64,000 nucleotides of DNA, taken from Shigella phage Sf21. Positions 8,004-56,837 of this stretch are shown here, one piece after another. The notes below the pieces were generated by a model. It saw nothing but the letters and a program-made list of their open reading frames with translations, made no database searches and was not told the DNA's origin. The translations under genes and the position numbers were made by a program. Each line of letters opens with the position of its first letter. Position 1 is the first letter of the stretch. The stretch lies in sequence record MF327007, one strand, 5' to 3'.

Positions 8004-8474
8004 TTAATCATGTGTCCACACCCCATCGGTATTTGACCAAAGTCGCTGATTATCTGATCCTCGCCACAGCTTTTTGGTCGGAAGATTTTTCTCATACTTC
8101 CCATCAATAATAACATCAACATATTTAAGCATTTCTAGTTGTTTAATATCTTCAAACTTATATCCTGTCCACAACCAAATGCTTTTATTGGGATAAAGAT
8201 TTTTAATAGTTTGAACCACAGAGTGAATCACGTCTCTGTTATCAGGATAGAGAGGGTCACCTCCGGTTATAGTCAATCCTTCTATATAATCATTATTCAA
8301 ACATTCAATTAATTGTTCTAGTGTTTCACCAGTGAATGGAACACCATTTCTAGCATTCCATGTTGATTTATTATAACACCCTTCACATTTATGCAAACAA
8401 CCTGTAACGAAAAGAACGGTCCTGCAGCCAGGACCATTAACAAAATCGCAAGGATAAAATCTATCATAATTCAT
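8004..8474 (-). CDS. nrdG: Anaerobic ribonucleotide reductase activating enzyme
   Basis: 156 aa; radical-SAM cysteine cluster CLHKCEGC; stop overlaps nrdD. Confidence 0.9.
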   Translation of the reverse strand: MNYDRFYPCDFVNGPGCRTVLFVTGCLHKCEGCYNKSTWNARNGVPFTGETLEQLIECLNNDYIEGLTITGGDPLYPDNRDVIHSVVQTIKNLYPNKSIWLWTGYKFEDIKQLEMLKYVDVIIDGKYEKNLPTKKLWRGSDNQRLWSNTDGVWTHD

Positions 8475-10288
8475 TGGTGCTTAACCCTATGCATGATTTC
8501 TTTATTTTTGCCGAGATTAAATCCGCGTTCGTTCGGATTTCCCAAATAACCACATGTTCTTCTTATTGTGTTCATCTTTTTAGGATCAGTTTCTCCACAA
8601 ATAGAACAAACAAATCCGTTTTCAGTAGGAGTCATTTCATGGGTACTTCCACATGTAAAACATTTATCTACTGGCATATTAACACCAAAATAATCTAAAT
8701 GTTGTGCAGCATAATCCCAGACAGCCTCAAGACCTTTTAGGTTATTTTTCATATCAGGAAGTTCAACATAAGAAATGTGACCACCTGTCGCAATGAAATG
8801 ATATGGGGCTTCGCGAGAAATCTTTTCAAACGGAGTAATATTTTCTTCTACTGAAACATGGAAACTGTTAGTGTACCATCCTTTATCGGTAACATCTTTT
8901 ACACTTCCATATTTTTCTGTATCAAGTTTACAGAAGCGATAACAAAGGTTTTCAGCAGGAGTCGAATACAAACTAAAAGCAAACCCAGTTCTTTCAGCCC
9001 ACTGTTTAAGACGAGCATTCATTTTAGTTAAAATTTCTTGTCCAATATCACGACCGACAAGAATATTCAATTCATGAATACCAATGTATCCTAAAGACAC
9101 TGAACTTCTACCGTTTTTAAATAACTCAATTATGTCGTCATCAGGTTTAAGACGAACCCCGAATGCACCTTCTTGATAAAGAATAGGAGCAACAGTAGCT
9201 TTAACTCCTTTTAAGGAACTAATTCTACACATCAAAGCTTCAAAACATAAATCCATTCGCTCATTGAACAATTCGATAAATTTCTGTTCATTGAACTGTG
9301 TTCCAATATAAGAATCCAACGCAATACGAGGAAGATTCAGTGTTACAACACCAAGATTATTACGTCCATCAAGAATTTCATTACCGGTTGAATCTTTCCA
9401 CGCACTCAAGAAACTGCGGCAACCCATTGGAGAAACAGGAATAGATGAGCCGGTGATAGCTTTATTGTTCTTAGCTGAAATAATATCAGGATACATCCTT
9501 TTGCTTGCACACTCTAGAGCAAGCTGCTTAATATCATAGTTCGGATCGTCTTTATAAAGATTAACACCTTCTTCAACGAACATAACAAGCTTAGGGAAAA
9601 TAGGAGTTATCCCATCACGACCGAGGCCTTTAATACGATTTTTCAGAATTGCTTTCTGAATCATTCGTTCAGTCCAGTCAGTTCCCGTACCAAATGTAAT
9701 TGTTACAAAAGGAGTCTGTCCGTTTGAACTAAAGAGAGTATTTACTTCATATTCATAAGCTTGGAATGCATCGTATACATCTTTTTCTGTTTTAGATTGA
9801 GCATAATTTAACGCATCAGCGATTTGCCATTTTTCTGCATCCTCAATATGTTTTGCATAGGTGCGTTTAACATAAGGAGAAAGTACTTTATCTACATTAG
9901 CAAAAGTCGTTCCGCCATATTGGTGAGAAGCAACTTGCGCAGTAATTTGTGCCATAATTGCAGTAGCAACTCCAATTGATTTAGGAGTTTCAATCTGTGC
10001 ATTACCTAGCTTAAATCCGTTTTCAAGCATTCCTTTTAAATCTACTAAACAACAATTAGTAAATGGAAGAGCAGGGGAATAATCAATATCATGGAAATGA
10101 ATAATTCCGCTTTCATGCGCTTTCATAATAAAAGACGGGACCATATTTTTGGCAATGTGTTTAGACACAATACCAGCCATAAGGTCCCGTTGAGTTGGAA
10201 AAACACGAGAATCTTTATTAGCATTCTCGTTTAAAAGGTCTTTATTAGTTTTATGAATCAATCCTTCAATTTCTTTTTCAATTGTCAT
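8471..10288 (-). CDS. nrdD: Anaerobic ribonucleoside-triphosphate reductase (class III), uninterrupted
   Basis: 605 aa; C-terminal glycyl-radical motif RTCGYLG and Zn-ribbon CFTCGSTHEM...CSICG; single continuous ORF. Confidence 0.95.
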   Translation of the reverse strand: MTIEKEIEGLIHKTNKDLLNENANKDSRVFPTQRDLMAGIVSKHIAKNMVPSFIMKAHESGIIHFHDIDYSPALPFTNCCLVDLKGMLENGFKLGNAQIETPKSIGVATAIMAQITAQVASHQYGGTTFANVDKVLSPYVKRTYAKHIEDAEKWQIADALNYAQSKTEKDVYDAFQAYEYEVNTLFSSNGQTPFVTITFGTGTDWTERMIQKAILKNRIKGLGRDGITPIFPKLVMFVEEGVNLYKDDPNYDIKQLALECASKRMYPDIISAKNNKAITGSSIPVSPMGCRSFLSAWKDSTGNEILDGRNNLGVVTLNLPRIALDSYIGTQFNEQKFIELFNERMDLCFEALMCRISSLKGVKATVAPILYQEGAFGVRLKPDDDIIELFKNGRSSVSLGYIGIHELNILVGRDIGQEILTKMNARLKQWAERTGFAFSLYSTPAENLCYRFCKLDTEKYGSVKDVTDKGWYTNSFHVSVEENITPFEKISREAPYHFIATGGHISYVELPDMKNNLKGLEAVWDYAAQHLDYFGVNMPVDKCFTCGSTHEMTPTENGFVCSICGETDPKKMNTIRRTCGYLGNPNERGFNLGKNKEIMHRVKHQ

Positions 10289-19438: not shown

Positions 19439-19468
19439 TAGTACCATAAAGCTTTATGCTTGTAAACC
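19439..19468 (-). promoter_or_regulatory. Early promoter (GTTTAC -35, 18-bp spacer, TACTAT -10)
   Basis: Same architecture; drives the ATPase gene 18435-19403. Confidence 0.65.
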
Positions 19469-19491
19469 GTTTTGTGAAAAAATTTTGAAAT

Positions 19492-19517
19492 AAAAAAAGG
19501 GAGCCCGAAGGCTCCCT
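19492..19517 (-). terminator. UUCG-tetraloop terminator (minus strand)
   Basis: Minus strand GGGAGCC-UUCG-GGCUCCC followed by seven U. Confidence 0.75.
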
Positions 19518-26728: not shown

Positions 26729-27190
26729 TCATTGAGTTTTAATTACTGCTTTAGAAGCCTTTCCTGGTAAACGACGACTATTGATAATTGCCATCCTGCA
26801 CTGAAGCGACGGGTCTTTGAACTTCGCATTAGGTTTACAAACTGTAAATCCAAGCCAAAGATTTCCATCTGTGATTTCTAAACGTCCAGGACGGTATTCA
26901 ACCCCATCAATAAAATCCTCATCAATGTCAGGACGCGGAGGCATACTCAGGAATTCATTAACTTCTAAAACATGGTCTTTTATTTTGTGGAATAATTCAA
27001 AAACATATGTCTCATCAATCTCCCGTTGAATTGCACGATCAAGAAGATGCTGAGAATATTTTAGATGAAACGATGAGACCCCTGCTGCTTTTGATGCCTC
27101 ACGAATCTCATTGTTAATTTGACGAAACTCCGACTCAAAGTGACGACGAAGCTTATTTCGACGGATAAAAACTTCTGTGTTGATAGTCAT
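26729..27190 (-). CDS. regB: Site-specific endoribonuclease RegB
   Basis: 153 aa, MTINTEVFIRRNKLRRHFESEFRQ...; recognised as T4 RegB. Confidence 0.8.
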   Translation of the reverse strand: MTINTEVFIRRNKLRRHFESEFRQINNEIREASKAAGVSSFHLKYSQHLLDRAIQREIDETYVFELFHKIKDHVLEVNEFLSMPPRPDIDEDFIDGVEYRPGRLEITDGNLWLGFTVCKPNAKFKDPSLQCRMAIINSRRLPGKASKAVIKTQ

Positions 27191-27249
27191 GTTATTCTCC
27201 TCTTAACTGATAGAAAAATTATACCACAGTCAAGAGGAAAAGTAAACAG

Positions 27250-27570
27250 TTATTCTTTAAATCTAATCAATTTATTCATAGACTTTGAAACTTCTGCACG
27301 AACCTCGTGCAGATTTTTAAGCTGTTCAAGACGTTGCTCATAGTAAGCAATTTCATCTTCTTCGAGGCAGTCATGTGAATCTTCTTTAAGATAACGTGCA
27401 TAGTCCTGGAAAGCTTTACGGACTACTTCCTGGAAATCATCAAGACTTTGAATTTTCTTAGAAGCAATAGATACACGACGAGGGGCAGTATAATACTCAT
27501 AACCAAACCCTGCGCTTAATTGAGCCATTAATATTTTTCCTCTGGTTGGAACACAGCACGACAAGCCCAC
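27250..27570 (-). CDS. Hypothetical protein (106 aa)
   Basis: ORF preceded by an early-type promoter. Confidence 0.5.
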
Positions 27571-27794
27571 ATACTAGCTTCTTTGAGTTTCGTTTTAGCA
27601 ATAGTTAACTGATCTAGGCTTTCAGCATAATTCTTTGCGAATTCGTAGTCTTCACAATTATCAAATGCTTCCCAGAATTCATCATATAAAGCGTCAAAGA
27701 TAAGTCCTAAACGAACTTCAGCATCTTTGATAGCATTCACTTTACTGATTTTATCGTCAGTATGTGGTTTATAACCTTTAATGTCTTCAATCAT
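27528..27794 (-). CDS. Hypothetical protein (88 aa)
   Basis: ORF on gene strand. Confidence 0.5.
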
Positions 27795-28008
27795 ATTTTA
27801 CTTCCTCACCTGTTCCCAAATCATATTCAACTAAACGAATAGGTTCATGAATGCCATATCCTTGAACAGAAATTTCTGTCGTAGGATAAATTCCATTAAT
27901 ATCACCCATGTTCCATGCTTCGTTAAATTGCTGTTCGCCTGAATTACTAAACCACTCGGCGAAAGCATTTAGCACATCTTCAGAACCTTCAATAATTATC
28001 TTTGCCAT
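27787..28008 (-). CDS. Hypothetical protein (73 aa)
   Basis: ORF on gene strand. Confidence 0.5.
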   Translation of the reverse strand: MAKIIIEGSEDVLNAFAEWFSNSGEQQFNEAWNMGDINGIYPTTEISVQGYGIHEPIRLVEYDLGTGEEVKYD

Positions 28009-28370
28009 TACAAACTCTCGGTGAAGGTACGAGCGATAACGTCGCGCTGCTGTTCCGGAGTCAGAGAGTTAAAGCGAACTGCATAACCGGATACACGGAT
28101 GGTCAGCTGCGGATATTTTTCCGGATGCTTAACTGCATCTTCCAGAGTTTCACGACGCAGAACGTTAACGTTCAGGTGTTGACCACCTTCAATTTTAACT
28201 GTAGGCTGTTGCTCAATTTCAATTTCACGGGCATGCAAACCATAGAAAATTTCTGGGTCTACAAAAGAGTCCTCTTTAAAGGTTTTAGAGACAATAATTC
28301 GTGCTTGAATACCATCTTCAAAATAAATAGTACCTTTATGTGTGCCTTCAAGAATTTGATATGCTTTCAT
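28008..28370 (-). CDS. Autonomous glycyl-radical cofactor (GrcA/YfiD-like)
   Basis: C-terminus ...[60 protein letters not shown] is a glycyl-radical domain (RVSGY); 3' half of the gene is GC-rich relative to the phage. Confidence 0.85.
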
Positions 28371-28376
28371 ATAACC

Positions 28377-28757
28377 TCAATTAGAAAATAAATTTATCCA
28401 AGATTGTTCTTTAATTAAAAATGGCTCAGAATCATATGCCATTAAACTCTGTGTGATTAGTCCTTTAAAAGGCCCATCAATAAATTCCATGGTAAAATAT
28501 GGAATTTTATTCATTAGCCGTGCATTAGGAGCCGTGCACAAAGCTCTGCATCCTTTGAATACGCCTTTTTGTAATTTGTATTGCTTGGGATAAAATTCGC
28601 TCAAAATGTTATTTTTTGCCAAAATTTCAAAATGATTCACCAATTTATTTTTAATAGTTTTTGGCGAAAAATAAAGATATTCGAAAAGCTGAGTGTCTGT
28701 CATCATTGCATTCCGATTACGAAAAACTGTGGACGAGTAATACCACCAATGCAACAT
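28377..28757 (-). CDS. Hypothetical protein (126 aa)
   Basis: ORF on gene strand. Confidence 0.5.
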   Translation of the reverse strand: MLHWWYYSSTVFRNRNAMMTDTQLFEYLYFSPKTIKNKLVNHFEILAKNNILSEFYPKQYKLQKGVFKGCRALCTAPNARLMNKIPYFTMEFIDGPFKGLITQSLMAYDSEPFLIKEQSWINLFSN

Positions 28758-29290
28758 TTACTATTACAGCAGTGTTGCACAGTTTCAATATGAATATCGT
28801 AAATTTTATCCATATCAGGAGATTTAACAGGCTCATCGATTATATACAAAATTCGCGAAAGAGATAAACCTCTGAACTTGCTTCCTTTATTACCGATAAA
28901 ACTACGGACAGAATCAGTAAATAAGCGGAATCGAATATCATCACTAGAATAACGAGAAAATTCTTTTTTAATGTGGCCTGCAGAAATTTTAGCGTAAGCT
29001 GAAGTATTAGAAAGAACAATAACTGTTCCACCGTCATACAGCCAATTAGCAGCAAAGTTAGTCACAGCAGTTGATTTACCAGATTGGCGTCCACCATCTA
29101 GTCGAAGTGTACAATATTGTTTAAGCAAGTCTTCAAATGGTGGGATATAATCGTTTTTACAAATTTCTTCTACTCTAGCATCAGAATGGTGTGTAAAAGC
29201 ATTCATCAGGGATAGATAAGGACCAGTTAAAAATGTTCTCATTTTATTCTCTCTAAATTTGGGCCATTCCATGGCGCATGAATTGTCCAT
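28703..29290 (-). CDS. Hypothetical P-loop protein (195 aa)
   Basis: GGRQSGKST Walker-A-like motif. Confidence 0.5.
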   Translation of the reverse strand: MDNSCAMEWPKFRENKMRTFLTGPYLSLMNAFTHHSDARVEEICKNDYIPPFEDLLKQYCTLRLDGGRQSGKSTAVTNFAANWLYDGGTVIVLSNTSAYAKISAGHIKKEFSRYSSDDIRFRLFTDSVRSFIGNKGSKFRGLSLSRILYIIDEPVKSPDMDKIYDIHIETVQHCCNSKCCIGGITRPQFFVIGMQ

Positions 29291-29395
29291 TTCTGTATTT
29301 ACCCATTACCGCACTTGGGCTCGACCTTATTACAGGTTGGCGGGAATCCCTCATAGAATCATGAGGTCCAGCTTGTTCCCATATTTCTTATTTGC

Positions 29396-29869
29396 TTATT
29401 TGAATGATTTGACGTACTGAATAGAGCCTTTGCTATTCACGAAAGCGATTTTACCATTTTTATTATACATGGTAGCAGTACGCTGATAACCATAAGTTTG
29501 TTTACCAGATTGATAACCAACTAATGCAAAATTATCTTCGCCCATTTTATTCTGTTTGGCGCGGATACGTTCATGACCGTGTGCCATAAGAACCTTAGCG
29601 TCGCCAGTTGCAATGGATCTACGAGTTTTTTCATCTTCAACTGTATTAACAAAATCGTCAAATGAATCAAATTTAGCATGAGATTTATTATACAGTTTTC
29701 CATCTACTGCATAATTATATCCCTGTACATCCATCTCAACTTCTGTACCATCATCTAATACAGCAGTGATTTTTTGACCTTTTTTAAATTTCAAAAGATC
29801 AGTAAAAGATTCAGCAATAATTTGAGAATTAATAGCTGCTTCAGTGATAAATTCTTGATATGTTTTCAT
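29396..29869 (-). CDS. Internal protein (capsid-targeted, injected)
   Basis: N-terminal capsid-targeting sequence MKTYQEFITE; basic 157-aa body; adjacent to denV. Confidence 0.7.
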   Translation of the reverse strand: MKTYQEFITEAAINSQIIAESFTDLLKFKKGQKITAVLDDGTEVEMDVQGYNYAVDGKLYNKSHAKFDSFDDFVNTVEDEKTRRSIATGDAKVLMAHGHERIRAKQNKMGEDNFALVGYQSGKQTYGYQRTATMYNKNGKIAFVNSKGSIQYVKSFK

Positions 29870-29878
29870 GTGTTTCCT

Positions 29879-30295
29879 TTAAATGTAAATATTTTTGCCG
29901 TAGTATTTATACCAGTGTGGCTTCATTAAAATTTTTTCATCGAGTCGTTGTTGACTCAATTTAATAGCCGATTTGCATGGGTTATAATCATTTTTCCATT
30001 CTGCTGGAATATCGCTGATGTCAGGAACTTCAGTATCTTTTATACTAAACCCACGTTTTAAGCATTCCGTTATAATGTCTGATTGACGCTTTCGCAAAAA
30101 TTCTAACTTATCGTAAAAGAAAGTAACATGACCAGAACCTAAAATAAACTCGGAAGATATTTTAAAATCTTTAACCCGCTTACCATTTGCAACATGTTTA
30201 CGAACTATACCAAAAACACGCGGCAATTCACGGTATTCTGCGATTAAATGTTGATCAGCAAGTTCAGATACTAAAGTCAAATTAATACGAGTCAT
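29879..30295 (-). CDS. denV: Endonuclease V (pyrimidine dimer DNA glycosylase)
   Basis: 138 aa, [29 protein letters not shown]... Confidence 0.93.
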
Positions 30296-30354
30296 TTTAT
30301 CCCTCCAAGTAACTGTGAATATACTATCACAATTCTAGGAGAAAGTAAACAACT

Positions 30355-30885
<531 letters not shown>

Positions 30886-35783: not shown

Positions 35784-35859
35784 TGGTCGAGGCAGTAGGG
35801 ATCGAACCTACGACCCAGGACTTAGAAGGTCCTTGCTCTTCCTTCTGAGCTATGCCCCG
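35784..35859 (-). tRNA. tRNA-Arg (anticodon UCU)
   Basis: Cloverleaf folded by hand from the reverse complement: acceptor CGGGGCA/TGCCTCG, anticodon loop CTTCTAA, T-arm GTAGG-TTCGATC-CCTAC, encoded CCA. Confidence 0.85.
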
Positions 35860-35863
35860 TAAT

Positions 35864-35939
35864 TGGGGTGACCGATGGGAGTCGAACCCATGACTACGAG
35901 AATCACAATCTCGAGTTCTACCAACTGAACTACGGCCAC
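35864..35939 (-). tRNA. tRNA-His (anticodon GUG)
   Basis: Acceptor GTGGCCG/CGGTCAC, anticodon loop TTGTGAT, T-arm ATGGG-TTCGACT-CCCAT, encoded CCA. Confidence 0.75.
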
Positions 35940-36033
35940 ATTAATACCTACTCCAACAATCAAGATGTCTTCACACGAAATTAAGAGAAGAGTGATCAGT
36001 TCAACCCCTATAATCGCGTCAAGTAGATATTAA

Positions 36034-36049
36034 TGTGACAGTTGTCACA
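36034..36049. promoter_or_regulatory. CRP-site-like palindrome TGTGA-N6-TCACA inside the tRNA array
   Basis: TGTGACAGTTGTCACA read directly; perfect half-sites with 6-bp spacer in the 114-nt gap between tRNA-Asn and tRNA-His. Confidence 0.3.
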
Positions 36050-36053
36050 AATT

Positions 36054-36129
36054 TGGCGGACGTGATAGGATTCGAACCTATAACCAATCGCTTAACAGGC
36101 GATCGCTCTGCCATTGAGCTACACATCCA
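36054..36129 (-). tRNA. tRNA-Asn (anticodon GUU)
   Basis: Acceptor GGATGTG/CACGTCC, anticodon loop CTGTTAA, T-arm ATAGG-TTCGAAT-CCTAT, encoded CCA. Confidence 0.75.
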
Positions 36130-36132
36130 AAT

Positions 36133-36219
36133 TGGTGGGGAGTGGTGGAGTCGAACCACCCGAGTCGCAATGACAATGAATTTACAGTCCACACCGCTAC
36201 CTCTACGGGATAACTCCCC
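36133..36219 (-). tRNA. tRNA-Tyr (anticodon GUA), long variable arm
   Basis: Acceptor GGGGAGT/ACTCCCC, anticodon loop CTGTAAA, T-arm GGTGG-TTCGACT-CCACC, 87 nt, encoded CCA. Confidence 0.7.
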
Positions 36220-36232
36220 CTAATTCTTAATT

Positions 36233-36307
36233 TGGTGGCCCTGGGTGGAATTGAACCACCATCTGGCGATTATGAGTCGCTTGCTTGAACCTTCCAGCTA
36301 CAGGGCC
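36233..36307 (-). tRNA. tRNA-Ile/Met type (anticodon CAU)
   Basis: Acceptor GGCCCTG/CAGGGCC, anticodon loop CTCATAA, T-arm GGTGG-TTCAATT-CCACC, encoded CCA. Confidence 0.75.
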
Positions 36308-36308
36308 T

Positions 36309-36384
36309 TGGTGCTGATTGACGGAATCGAACCGCCGACCTTCTCATTACAAGTGAGTTGCTCTACCTACTGAGCTAAATCAGC
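36309..36384 (-). tRNA. tRNA-Thr (anticodon UGU)
   Basis: GCTGATTTAGCTCAGTAGG...CTTGTAA...GGTTCGATTCC...AATCAGCACCA. Confidence 0.88.
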
Positions 36385-36389
36385 AAAAC

Positions 36390-36479
36390 TGGCGGAGGCG
36401 ATAGGATTTGAACCTATGAGTCGCCGGAGCGACTGCCGGTTTTCAAGACCGGTGCATTAAACCACTCTGCCACGCCTCC
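36390..36479 (-). tRNA. tRNA-Ser (anticodon UGA), long variable arm
   Basis: Acceptor GGAGGCG/CGCCTCC, anticodon loop CTTGAAA, 90 nt. Confidence 0.85.
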
Positions 36480-36481
36480 AG

Positions 36482-36555
36482 TCTCCGCGGCAGGATTTGA
36501 ACCTACGACATTCTGCTCCCAAAGCAGACGCTCTACCAAACTGAGCTACACGGAG
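36482..36555 (-). tRNA. tRNA-Pro (anticodon UGG), CCA not encoded
   Basis: Acceptor CTCCGTG/CGCGGAG, anticodon loop TTTGGGA, T-arm GTAGG-TTCAAAT-CCTGC; 3' end followed by CT not CCA. Confidence 0.85.
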
Positions 36556-36565
36556 TAAATTAAAT

Positions 36566-36639
<74 letters not shown>

Positions 36640-36644
36640 AAATT

Positions 36645-36731
36645 TGGTGCGAGAAGTGGGACTCGAACCCACAAGGAAATCATTCCGCAGCATTTTAAGT
36701 GCTGTGCCTTTACCAATTTGACCATTCTCGC
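36645..36731 (-). tRNA. tRNA-Leu (anticodon UAA), long variable arm
   Basis: Acceptor GCGAGAA/TTCTCGC, anticodon loop CTTAAAA, 87 nt, encoded CCA. Confidence 0.88.
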
Positions 36732-36732
36732 G

Positions 36733-36805
36733 CTGGGAATAAAGGACTCGAACCTTTGCATCTAGCAGTCAAAGTGCTATGCCTTACCAACTTGGCTAAT
36801 TCCCA
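36733..36805 (-). tRNA. tRNA-Gln (anticodon UUG), CCA not encoded
   Basis: TGGGAATTAGCCAAGTTGGTAAGGC...CTTTGAC...AAAGGTTCGAGTCCTTTATTCCCAG. Confidence 0.85.
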
Positions 36806-55290: not shown

Positions 55291-56837
55291 GTAACAATAC
55301 ATATCAGCACGTATCAAATGAATCAAAATATGTTAAATTCGATCCTACTGGATCGAATTTTCCTGGCACTGTTACGACAGTACAGTCTGCATTATCAAAA
55401 ATAAGTAATATCGGCGTAAATGGTATTCCTGATGCAACTATGGAAGTTAAAGGAATAGCAATGATTGCGTCAGAACAAGAGGTTTTAGATGGAACTAATA
55501 ACTCTAAAATCGTTACACCAGCTACATTAGCAACAAGATTATTGTATCCAAATGCTACTGAAACTAAATATGGTTTAACGCGTTATTCAACAAATGAAGA
55601 AACATTAAAAGGCTCAGATAATAATTCATCAATAACACCACAAAAACTGAAATACCACACTGACGATGTGTTCAAAAATAGATATTCGTCTGAGTCATCA
55701 AACGGGGTTATTAAAATATCATCTACACCTGCAGCTTTGGCTGGAGTTGATGATACTACTGCGATGACTCCGCTAAAAACCCAAAAACTTGCAATAAAAT
55801 TAATTTCGCAAATAGCTCCTTCAGAAGACACTGCAACAGAATCGGTGAGAGGAGTAGTTCAATTATCTACTGTTGCACAAATTCGTCAAGGAACTCTCCG
55901 CGAAGGATATGCAATTTCCCCGTATACCTTTATGAATTCTGTTGCAACACATGAATATAAGGGTGTTATACGCCTAGGAACGCAGACTGAAATTAATAAT
56001 AATTTGGGTGGTGTTGCAGTAACAGGTGAAACACTAAATGGTCGAGGAGCTACCGGTTCTATGCGTGGAGTAGTTAAATTAACGACGCAAGCCGGTATTG
56101 CCCCTGAAGGTGATAGCTCTGGAGCATTAGCATGGAACGCAGATGTAATTAATACTCGTGGTGGACAAACTATTAATGGTTCTTTAAATTTAGACCATCT
56201 TACAGCAAATGGAATTTGGTCACGCGGTGGAATGTGGAAAAATGGCGATCAACCTGTTGCCACTGAAAGATATGCGTCCGAACGAGTTCCGGTTGGAACT
56301 ATTATGATGTTTGCGGGTGATTCAGCACCTCCAGGTTGGATTATGTGTCATGGTGGAACCGTGTCAGGTGACCAATTTCCTGATTATAGAAACGTAGTTG
56401 GAACAAGATTTGGTGGCGATTGGAATAATCCTGGCGTTCCTGATATGCGGGGTCTTTTCGTCAGAGGAGCCGGCACAGGCGGTCATATTTTAAATCAACG
56501 TGGACAAGATGGCTATGGAAAGGATAGACTGGGCGTAGGATGTGACGGAATGCATGTTGGTGGTGTTCAGGCACAACAAATGTCATACCATAAACATGCT
56601 GGTGGTTGGGGTGAATATAACAGAAGTGAAGGCCCATTTGGCGCGTCAGTTTATCAAGGATATCTTGGAACTAGAAAATATTCCGACTGGGATAATGCTT
56701 CATACTTCACTAATGATGGATTTGAATTAGGTGGACCGAGAGATGCTCATGGTACACTTAATCGTGAAGGATTAATTGGTTATGAAACTAGACCATGGAA
56801 TATATCATTAAACTATATTATTAAAGTTCATTACTAA
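55287..56837 (+). CDS. 12: Short tail fibre gp12
   Basis: 516 aa; synteny 11-12-wac. Confidence 0.9.

Follow-up and report, generated by a model that had tools for sequence, protein, structure and literature searches.

How has a gene of a T-even phage come to hold, in its 3' half, DNA that is letter for letter that of a chromosomal gene of Escherichia coli, and has this happened more than once? The question is raised by vs.6, which lies at 28008..28370 on the minus strand of a 64,000-nucleotide (nt) stretch of Shigella phage Sf21 (sequence record MF327007), referred to below in its full length as the window. The gene encodes a 120-amino-acid (aa) protein of the GrcA/YfiD type, an autonomous glycyl-radical cofactor, and corresponds to T4 vs.6, whose product is Y06I. 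A preliminary description made from the letters alone had placed here an open reading frame (ORF) ending in a glycyl-radical domain; the ORF was found at that position on the minus strand and carries the C-terminal sequence then quoted. The comparisons reported here make it very probable that vs.6 is a stand-alone glycyl-radical spare part for pyruvate formate-lyase (PFL), and that the 3' part of a homologue belonging to the phage was overwritten by grcA of the host in a host-specific and recurrent manner. We also lean, if only slightly, towards a repeated re-synchronisation of this 3' part with grcA of the enterobacterial species in which each Tevenvirinae lineage replicates, through homologous recombination in the course of lytic infection.

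The host-derived tract, a putative conversion tract, extends over gene nt 179-347 (28024..28192, minus strand). All 169 of its 169 nt are identical to E. coli grcA; the peptide that it specifies, [10 protein letters not shown]...ARTF, contains the radical glycine. The resemblance to the C-terminus of E. coli GrcA/YfiD recognised in the preliminary description, which had also proposed a BLASTN comparison with grcA, was borne out at both levels: the 58 C-terminal residues are identical, and the nucleotide comparison gave 169/169 identical positions with matches in all 5,426 complete E. coli genomes. In these genomes, gene nt 179-363 aligned to grcA in 5,426 of 5,426 cases at 95-99% identity (97.3% for the best of the E. 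coli matches listed), and blastn found no nucleotide similarity to them upstream of gene nt 179. The last 16 nt of vs.6 hold 5 synonymous differences from E. coli grcA. Base composition is not uniform across the gene, as had also been noted beforehand: the tract has a GC content of 50%, with 0.44 at third codon positions (GC3), against 34% and 0.20 in the AT-rich 5' half and 35.1% GC in the whole window. The earlier placing of the boundary near 28200 was right as to a host-like tract and wrong as to its edge, which stands at 28192, 8 nt away. Segments of 170 nt reaching 50% GC make up 0.66% of those within the 64 kb, and the others at or above 50% GC are situated in or beside the transfer RNA (tRNA) cluster, except those at 56309-56616. 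A megablast search with all 64 kb showed the tract to be the only part of the window that matches E. coli chromosomes in general, the further matches consisting of one of 54 nt in a single genome and of plasmid tRNA matches at ~83%.

Many of the grcA genes of 80 bacterial species encode the same C-terminal 61 residues as the phage. In these same-peptide species (Citrobacter, Trabulsiella, Edwardsiella, Salmonella and others) the tract DNA is ~84-90% identical, and the longest exact runs shared with the tract measure 14-47 nt, against 169 nt for E. coli; another Escherichia species reaches 77 nt. Moreover, grcA of E. coli and that of Klebsiella pneumoniae differ at 21 diagnostic sites within the tract, and the window has the E. 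coli state at 21/21. The identity thus goes well past what chance or constraint on the protein could produce. Because Enterobacteriaceae with the same amino acids are that far apart in their DNA, the 3' half of vs.6 represents a real transfer of DNA from Escherichia to the phage. The donor is grcA and not pflB (100% against 79% identity): pflB agrees with the tract at ~79% of nt and shares an exact run of 37 nt with it, and is most likely the second chromosomal match per genome in the megablast search, seeded by this run (an indirect identification).

Phages of Klebsiella have a counterpart of this tract. Klebsiella phage vB_KpnM_Lion_ER11, a Jiaodavirus relative, possesses a colinear gene. 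Its 5' half has 74% identity to that of the window; for its 3' half, identity is 96.0% with K. pneumoniae grcA and 85.7% with E. coli grcA. At the diagnostic sites it shows the K. pneumoniae state at 19/21, whereas the E. coli state is found at 21/21 in the window, T4, phiE142 (Carettavirus) and two Mosigviruses, and at 20/21 in a third Mosigvirus; unconverted phages display mixed states. The core of the gene in three further Jiaodaviruses matches K. pneumoniae grcA at 159-165 of 170 nt, against 146/170 for E. coli grcA. More broadly, 77 phage records reach 95-99% identity with the K. pneumoniae core, and the matches listed above 93% all come from Klebsiella or Raoultella phages. For E. coli grcA, 637 phage records have at least 95% identity; none covers 80% of the gene and, among the matches listed, all start at grcA nt 200. 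The E. coli and Klebsiella systems share their left edge, which lies no more than 3 nt from the codon that opens [10 protein letters not shown]; it is here that the resemblance between phage-type and host genes first suffices for pairing.

Two other phages of these hosts deserve mention. The core in Raoultella phage Ra_O-1 (L099, 121-483) has 8 differences from K. pneumoniae grcA, 6 of which match the grcA of a Raoultella sp. (L040), and this hints at a third host-specific donor. In Klebsiella phage KPV15 (L100, KY000080.1, 124-486), the 5' half of vs.6 lies out of frame, the annotation splits the gene into two short ORFs, and the K. pneumoniae-like 3' tract is intact; the frame break could be a sequencing error or mark a truncated allele expressing the radical domain only.

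Synonymous divergence is distributed unevenly along the gene. Comparison of the window with phiE142 gives proportions of synonymous differences of 0.33 for the 5' half and 0.02 for the tract (Fisher p 0.0004). In unconverted Karamvirus pairs, the 5' and 3' halves differ by 0.20 and 0.25 in one case and by 0.35 and 0.29 in the other, and such equal rates imply that the tract is not intrinsically slow-evolving. The comparison of phiE142 with Mosigvirus mar005P1 revealed 0 synonymous differences in the 5' half and 4 differing sites in the tract; phiE142 is identical to E. coli at all 4, and the Mosigvirus tract variants are absent from all E. coli genomes examined. Ungapped identities calculated for the flanking 300 nt were set aside, being meaningless owing to indels.

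Beyond the tract, the last nucleotides of the gene form a phage-type 3' tail (gene nt 348-363; 28008..28023, minus strand; ...F-T-E-S-L-stop), which holds the 5 synonymous differences from E. coli grcA and contains a GAGAG Shine-Dalgarno-like sequence. This tail is a mosaic among Tequatroviruses, with at least 7 haplotypes ranging from 0/5 host states in the window to 4/5 in Escherichia phage OES_C-2, which suggests different conversion endpoints or repair patches. T4 has 3/5 host states in its tail and 1 difference from E. coli grcA in its core. The OES_C-2 gene (L183, 79-435; Tequatrovirus) has a 6-nt in-frame deletion in its 5' half and a length of 118 aa, and its E. coli-identical tract continues across the stop codon, one difference apart (GAG vs GAA). 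The tail overlaps the ribosome-binding site and start of the following gene, vs.5, and this may limit the conversions that survive on the right; a ribosome-binding site is annotated at the tail position in T4 and in phage Mineola (GAGG there). The idea that the tail is kept for the vs.5 Shine-Dalgarno is partly supported, OES_C-2 keeping only the G of GAG, and is weakened by T4, which has the host GAA in its tail. The Klebsiella-type tract at the same boundary, the varying right endpoints and the contrast of 0.33 and 0.02 in synonymous divergence jointly argue that conversion has occurred more than once and has followed the host species.

A possible, though rather doubtful, alternative is that one conversion took place per host type (E. 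coli, Klebsiella), after which the 3' half spread among Tequatrovirus, Mosigvirus and Carettavirus by recombination during co-infection, with no continuing exchange with the host. T-even phages recombine freely, which speaks for such a spread, and the three Mosigviruses share the same four core substitutions, as in vertical inheritance after a single event; the near-identity of the core across genera whose 5' halves differ by 10-12% could be produced by either route. However, the tail combinations, at least 7 in number, mostly need a host source more than once, or patchy heteroduplex repair. Likewise, phiE142 has its 5' half in common with the Mosigviruses and yet a core without difference from E. 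coli, and the 6 of 8 core differences in Ra_O-1 that match a Raoultella grcA fit poorly with so few transfers.

Several other points weigh against a recurrent and host-specific overwriting of vs.6. The pattern in E. coli phages could come from a few host-to-phage events combined with phage-to-phage recombination. Tequatroviruses isolated on Yersinia, Serratia, Citrobacter and Hafnia keep the E. coli-type tract, so that the tract does not always match the isolation host. Krischvirus-like and T5-like phages infecting E. coli have unconverted cores, and the Salmonella grcA core compared with all phages gave no record at or above 95% identity; host matching is therefore not universal. Post-conversion substitutions are modestly biased from GC towards AT (20 vs 10 distinct sites), too weakly to carry an argument. 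As regards the protein family, vs.6 scores 154.9 bits against NCBIfam TIGR04365 and does not reach its equivalog cut-off of 170 bits (E. coli GrcA scores 233.9 bits), a shortfall attributable to the diverged N-terminus of vs.6, for which TIGR04365 is still the best-scoring family. Finally, recombination with the host is inferred from sequence comparison, and the physiological benefit to the phage is a presumed one.

The overwriting of a homologue already present in the phage is supported by the rest of the gene. The phage-type 5' part (gene nt 1-178, codons 1-59; 28193..28370, minus strand) is AT-rich and anciently diverged from the N-terminal region of GrcA. A profile of the phage N-terminus aligned over its whole length with the first 66 residues of bacterial GrcA; hhalign gave a probability of 97.1% and E 6e-11 for 60 aligned columns. 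This N-terminal half is conserved in T4-like, T5-like and jumbo phages, and its nonsynonymous (dN) and synonymous (dS) divergences between Tequatrovirus and Carettavirus, 0.044 and 0.43 respectively, indicate purifying selection on the 5' part. In the Karamvirus phages of Cronobacter and Enterobacter, the gene has a colinear 3' half that is 76-77% identical to E. coli grcA; their cores are at most ~80% identical to any sampled grcA, with a GC3 of 0.19 in phage EnC15. The cores of the T5-like, Aeromonas-phage and jumbo-phage copies are similarly diverged from host grcA. Those of Slopekvirus and Pseudotevenvirus are intermediate (80-84% identity, GC3 0.42-0.47) and could be old conversions or come from unsampled donors. 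As the N-termini are homologous and Karamvirus keeps a phage-type 3' half, T4-like phages have long carried their own full-length, AT-rich grcA homologue, the 3' part of which was overwritten by E. coli sequence in the window.

The preliminary description had taken the gene for a chimera containing a captured host fragment. The 3' half is indeed made of E. coli grcA DNA, but its fusion to an unrelated N-terminus, contradicted by the N-terminal homology and by the unconverted colinear relatives, had to be abandoned. A simple domain capture, in which a 3' fragment of host grcA was fused once to an unrelated phage ORF, would explain the sharp mid-gene jump in nucleotide identity and GC; it is nonetheless very unlikely, given that the homology to the GrcA N-terminus runs along the whole length of the phage half, that the alignments by BLASTP and with PDB 6owr already begin at residue 22, that related phages have the colinear gene with a phage-like 3' half (~76% identical to host genes), and that, at one and the same boundary, each of two phage lineages matches a different host species. 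IMG/VR contigs of ~30-150 kb (L121-L126, L133) were also seen to carry GrcA-like genes of greater length (131-179 aa), with cores closest (80-86%) to grcA of Haemophilus parainfluenzae or Pantoea; these contigs may represent Pasteurellaceae phages with partly host-like cores.

The assignment of the protein is based on several comparisons. The Pfam Gly_radical domain covers vs.6 residues 60-101 (E 2.5e-18); the nuclear magnetic resonance structure of E. coli GrcA (PDB 6owr) aligns over residues 22-120 (E 9e-42), the PFL structure 1h16 matches at E 5e-26, and BLASTP gave 57% identity to the C-terminus of E. coli PflB across 106 aa (E 3e-36). As in GrcA/YfiD, the product is a small (~14 kDa) stand-alone protein with a C-terminal PFL-type glycyl-radical domain and a conserved radical glycine in the RVSGYAV motif. 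The predicted radical site is Gly95 (codon at 28086..28088, minus strand), which aligns with Gly102 of E. coli GrcA and is also aligned to PflB; the radical site of PFL is Gly734 (PMC8683613). That paper, citing Wagner et al. 2001, reports YfiD and T4 Y06I as the only two biochemically validated spare parts for PFL: PFL-activating enzyme installs a glycyl radical on YfiD or Y06I, which then forms a complex with oxygen-cleaved PFL and restores its activity. The window protein differs from T4 Y06I by 2 residues (Q54 vs P, R73 vs H). Since its domain is identical to that of the host, it should be activated by the host PflA and fit the host PflB. The gene and its function are already known, and nothing new is added here on function.

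The idea that vs.6 is a spare part not for the PFL of the host but for NrdD, the anaerobic ribonucleotide reductase of the phage itself, has some attraction. NrdD (8471..10288, minus strand) and its activase NrdG (8004..8474, minus strand) are encoded in the window, as previously stated, 18-20 kb away from vs.6, and they too belong to a glycyl-radical system; Nolan et al. 2006 (PMC1524935), who recorded only the Gly_radical match, speculated on a role of vs.6 in nucleotide metabolism. The link to NrdD drawn in the preliminary description was not supported, however: vs.6 shows no detectable similarity to the NrdD of the window (BLASTP E 5.6), in which the motif context, RRTCGYLG, is different, and its similarity is to PflB instead. 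Since its domain is identical to that of E. coli GrcA and shares 57% identity with the C-terminus of PflB, and since the biochemistry reported in PMC8683613 is PFL rescue, a dedication to NrdD is highly improbable.

The direction of the transfer is from host to phage, since the tract has the composition of the host, is present in all E. coli genomes and belongs to a gene whose cores grade by bacterial taxon. Identity alone gives no direction, and nothing specific speaks for a donation of the segment by a phage to E. coli and Klebsiella; this is extremely unlikely because the tract, host-like in GC and GC3, occurs in each of the 5,426 E. coli genomes within a host gene whose composition is uniform, because the sampled grcA cores of Enterobacteriaceae grade smoothly by taxon, and because the same tract is a compositional island in the phage. 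The weakest explanation, identity without any transfer through convergent selection on protein and codon usage, can appeal to the extreme purifying selection on the 61 C-terminal residues, identical across many Enterobacteriaceae, and has a negligible probability, being refuted by same-peptide species that differ from E. coli at 10-16% of nucleotides, by Karamvirus and T5-like phages that encode closely similar peptides with AT-rich codons, and by 169 consecutive identical bases with 21/21 E. coli-specific synonymous states, which are beyond convergence.

The overwriting of a phage homologue by host grcA can be set in the following scenario. During infection, the PFL-activating enzyme of the host, PflA, would install the radical on Gly95, and the radical-bearing vs.6 protein would dock onto PFL molecules cleaved by oxygen at their own radical glycine and bring their activity back. 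The protein supplied by the phage would keep the fermentative production of acetyl-coenzyme A, adenosine triphosphate and formate running in microaerobic infection. T4 shuts off host gene expression, and a phage copy would be of use where spent GrcA can no longer be replaced by the host. In E. coli-infecting lineages, the 3' part has been overwritten; the replaced segment begins with the first base at which phage and host are strongly homologous (the [10 protein letters not shown] motif) and ends at a varying position, either at the stop codon or shortly before it. The position of the left edge at the limit of homology, the variable right endpoints and the match of the tract to the host species point to homologous recombination or gene conversion with host DNA during infection as the probable mechanism. 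T4 can rescue markers from cytosine-containing cloned DNA, as is established in T4 genetics. The first, homeologous event would be rare, and the near-identity that it creates would make repeats easy.

If the 3' part of vs.6 is repeatedly re-synchronised with host grcA, strictly virulent phages would recombine with host chromosomes in nature often enough to give species-specific tracts of zero divergence. The ~170-nt tract would then keep a record of the hosts that a lineage has recently had, and there may be selection for a radical domain copied exactly from the host, because it needs to fit both PflA and PflB of the host.

The window belongs to a Tequatrovirus: over the 3 kb around vs.6, identity is 99.1% with Escherichia phage 107 and 96-98% with many T4-like phages. 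As the preliminary description had remarked, a YfiD homologue has been described in T4: vs.6 is 98.3% identical in nucleotides to T4 ORF 63.1 (X04567, sequence of 1986), and the genes of T4, T2 and hundreds of other Tequatroviruses are 98-100% identical to that of the window. The protein matches phrog_1209 end to end. A GAGG Shine-Dalgarno of vs.6, read directly from the sequence (28375..28378, minus strand), overlaps the TGA stop codon of the upstream gene vs.7. Downstream, vs.5 (27787..28008, minus strand; 73 aa, phrog_1986) has an ATG overlapping the vs.6 stop codon; the stop of the one and the start of the other share TAATG, and the translation signals of vs.5 lie inside the vs.6 tail. The genes vs.7, vs.6 and vs.5 form a tightly packed polycistronic arrangement, and RegB, vs.1 and DenV are encoded near vs.6 in the window. 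The length of vs.5 varies between close relatives, with 73 aa here, 74 aa in the Mosigvirus and Carettavirus relatives and 58 aa (ORF 62.7) in T4 X04567. A promoter and terminator scan of 27000-30500 gave 14 promoter-like sites against 13.8 expected from shuffled sequence, i.e. no enrichment, and no dedicated vs.6 promoter is claimed since the scan did no better than the shuffles.

Elsewhere in the window, 11 tRNA genes (Arg, His, Asn, Tyr, Met/CAU, Thr, Ser, Pro, Gly, Leu, Gln) lie at 35784-36805 on the minus strand; T4 has 8 tRNA genes. Their Asn-Tyr part (36068-36223) is ~83% identical to a tRNA-Tyr/tRNA-Thr stretch on E. coli plasmids of ~90-110 kb in 212 genomes, and had no chromosomal match among E. 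coli genomes. The 54-nt match corresponds to 19449-19502, without annotated feature, and is found at 94.5% identity at two places on the chromosome of a single E. coli genome, strain BE104. The GC-rich stretch at 56309-56616 (at least 49% GC in 170-nt segments) is situated in the late-gene region on the plus strand; it had no megablast match to any E. coli genome, and for this reason it is not host-identical DNA, unlike the vs.6 tract.

A literature search found no account of the nucleotide identity between vs.6 and grcA, of its Klebsiella counterpart or of a repeated host-matched conversion, although an earlier notice is possible, as key older T4 sources were not covered. The locus offers a clean natural case of a strictly lytic T-even phage exchanging DNA with the host chromosome, with tract edges that are base-pair-sharp and host-species-specific (E. 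coli or Klebsiella) and endpoints that vary within one phage genus. Gene conversion from host to virulent phage becomes directly measurable in the best-developed phage genetic system, and the tract is a possible marker of the recent host for Tevenvirinae genomes. It also calls for caution: hundreds of T4-like genomes contain a stretch of 169-185 nt identical to the E. coli chromosome, by which read mapping, contamination filtering and the search for host-derived sequences can be misled.

Among known systems, T4 vs.6/Y06I is the same gene, with the same 120-aa length, the same neighbours vs.7 and vs.5 and an E. coli-identical tract; the window differs from it in its tail (0/5 host states, against 3/5 in T4) and by two amino acids. 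E. coli GrcA shares with the phage protein the RVSGYAV motif, full-length homology and the 58 C-terminal residues and 169 nt that are identical. The phage protein falls 7 residues short of GrcA in length, shows ~28% profile-level identity to it over its first 59 residues and is made from a polycistronic unit of the phage. The C-terminal radical domain of PflB is the module that the spare part replaces, but PflB is a 760-aa enzyme and vs.6 consists of the radical domain only. The unconverted homologues (Karamvirus CC31, Pet-CM3-4 and EnC15, T5 gene T5.056, and the Aeromonas-phage and jumbo-phage copies) have the same architecture and motif; with their AT-rich 3' halves, 71-86% identical to any sampled bacterial grcA, they show the gene without recent conversion.

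The closest parallel to the exchange itself is provided by cyanophage psbA and psbD, for which recombination between host and phage alleles inside the gene has been described (Sullivan et al. 2006, PMC1484495). There too, a host-derived metabolic gene of T4-like lytic phages is a mosaic with host alleles, and vs.6 shows the same signs as psbA, i.e. an abrupt change in host identity and composition within the gene and phage lineages that match their own host species, with exceptions. Unlike the cyanophage genes, vs.6 concerns Tevenvirinae and an enterobacterial host, its tract of ~170 nt is perfectly identical to that of the host, its left edge is fixed at the limit of homology, and the host species is matched in two phage genera.

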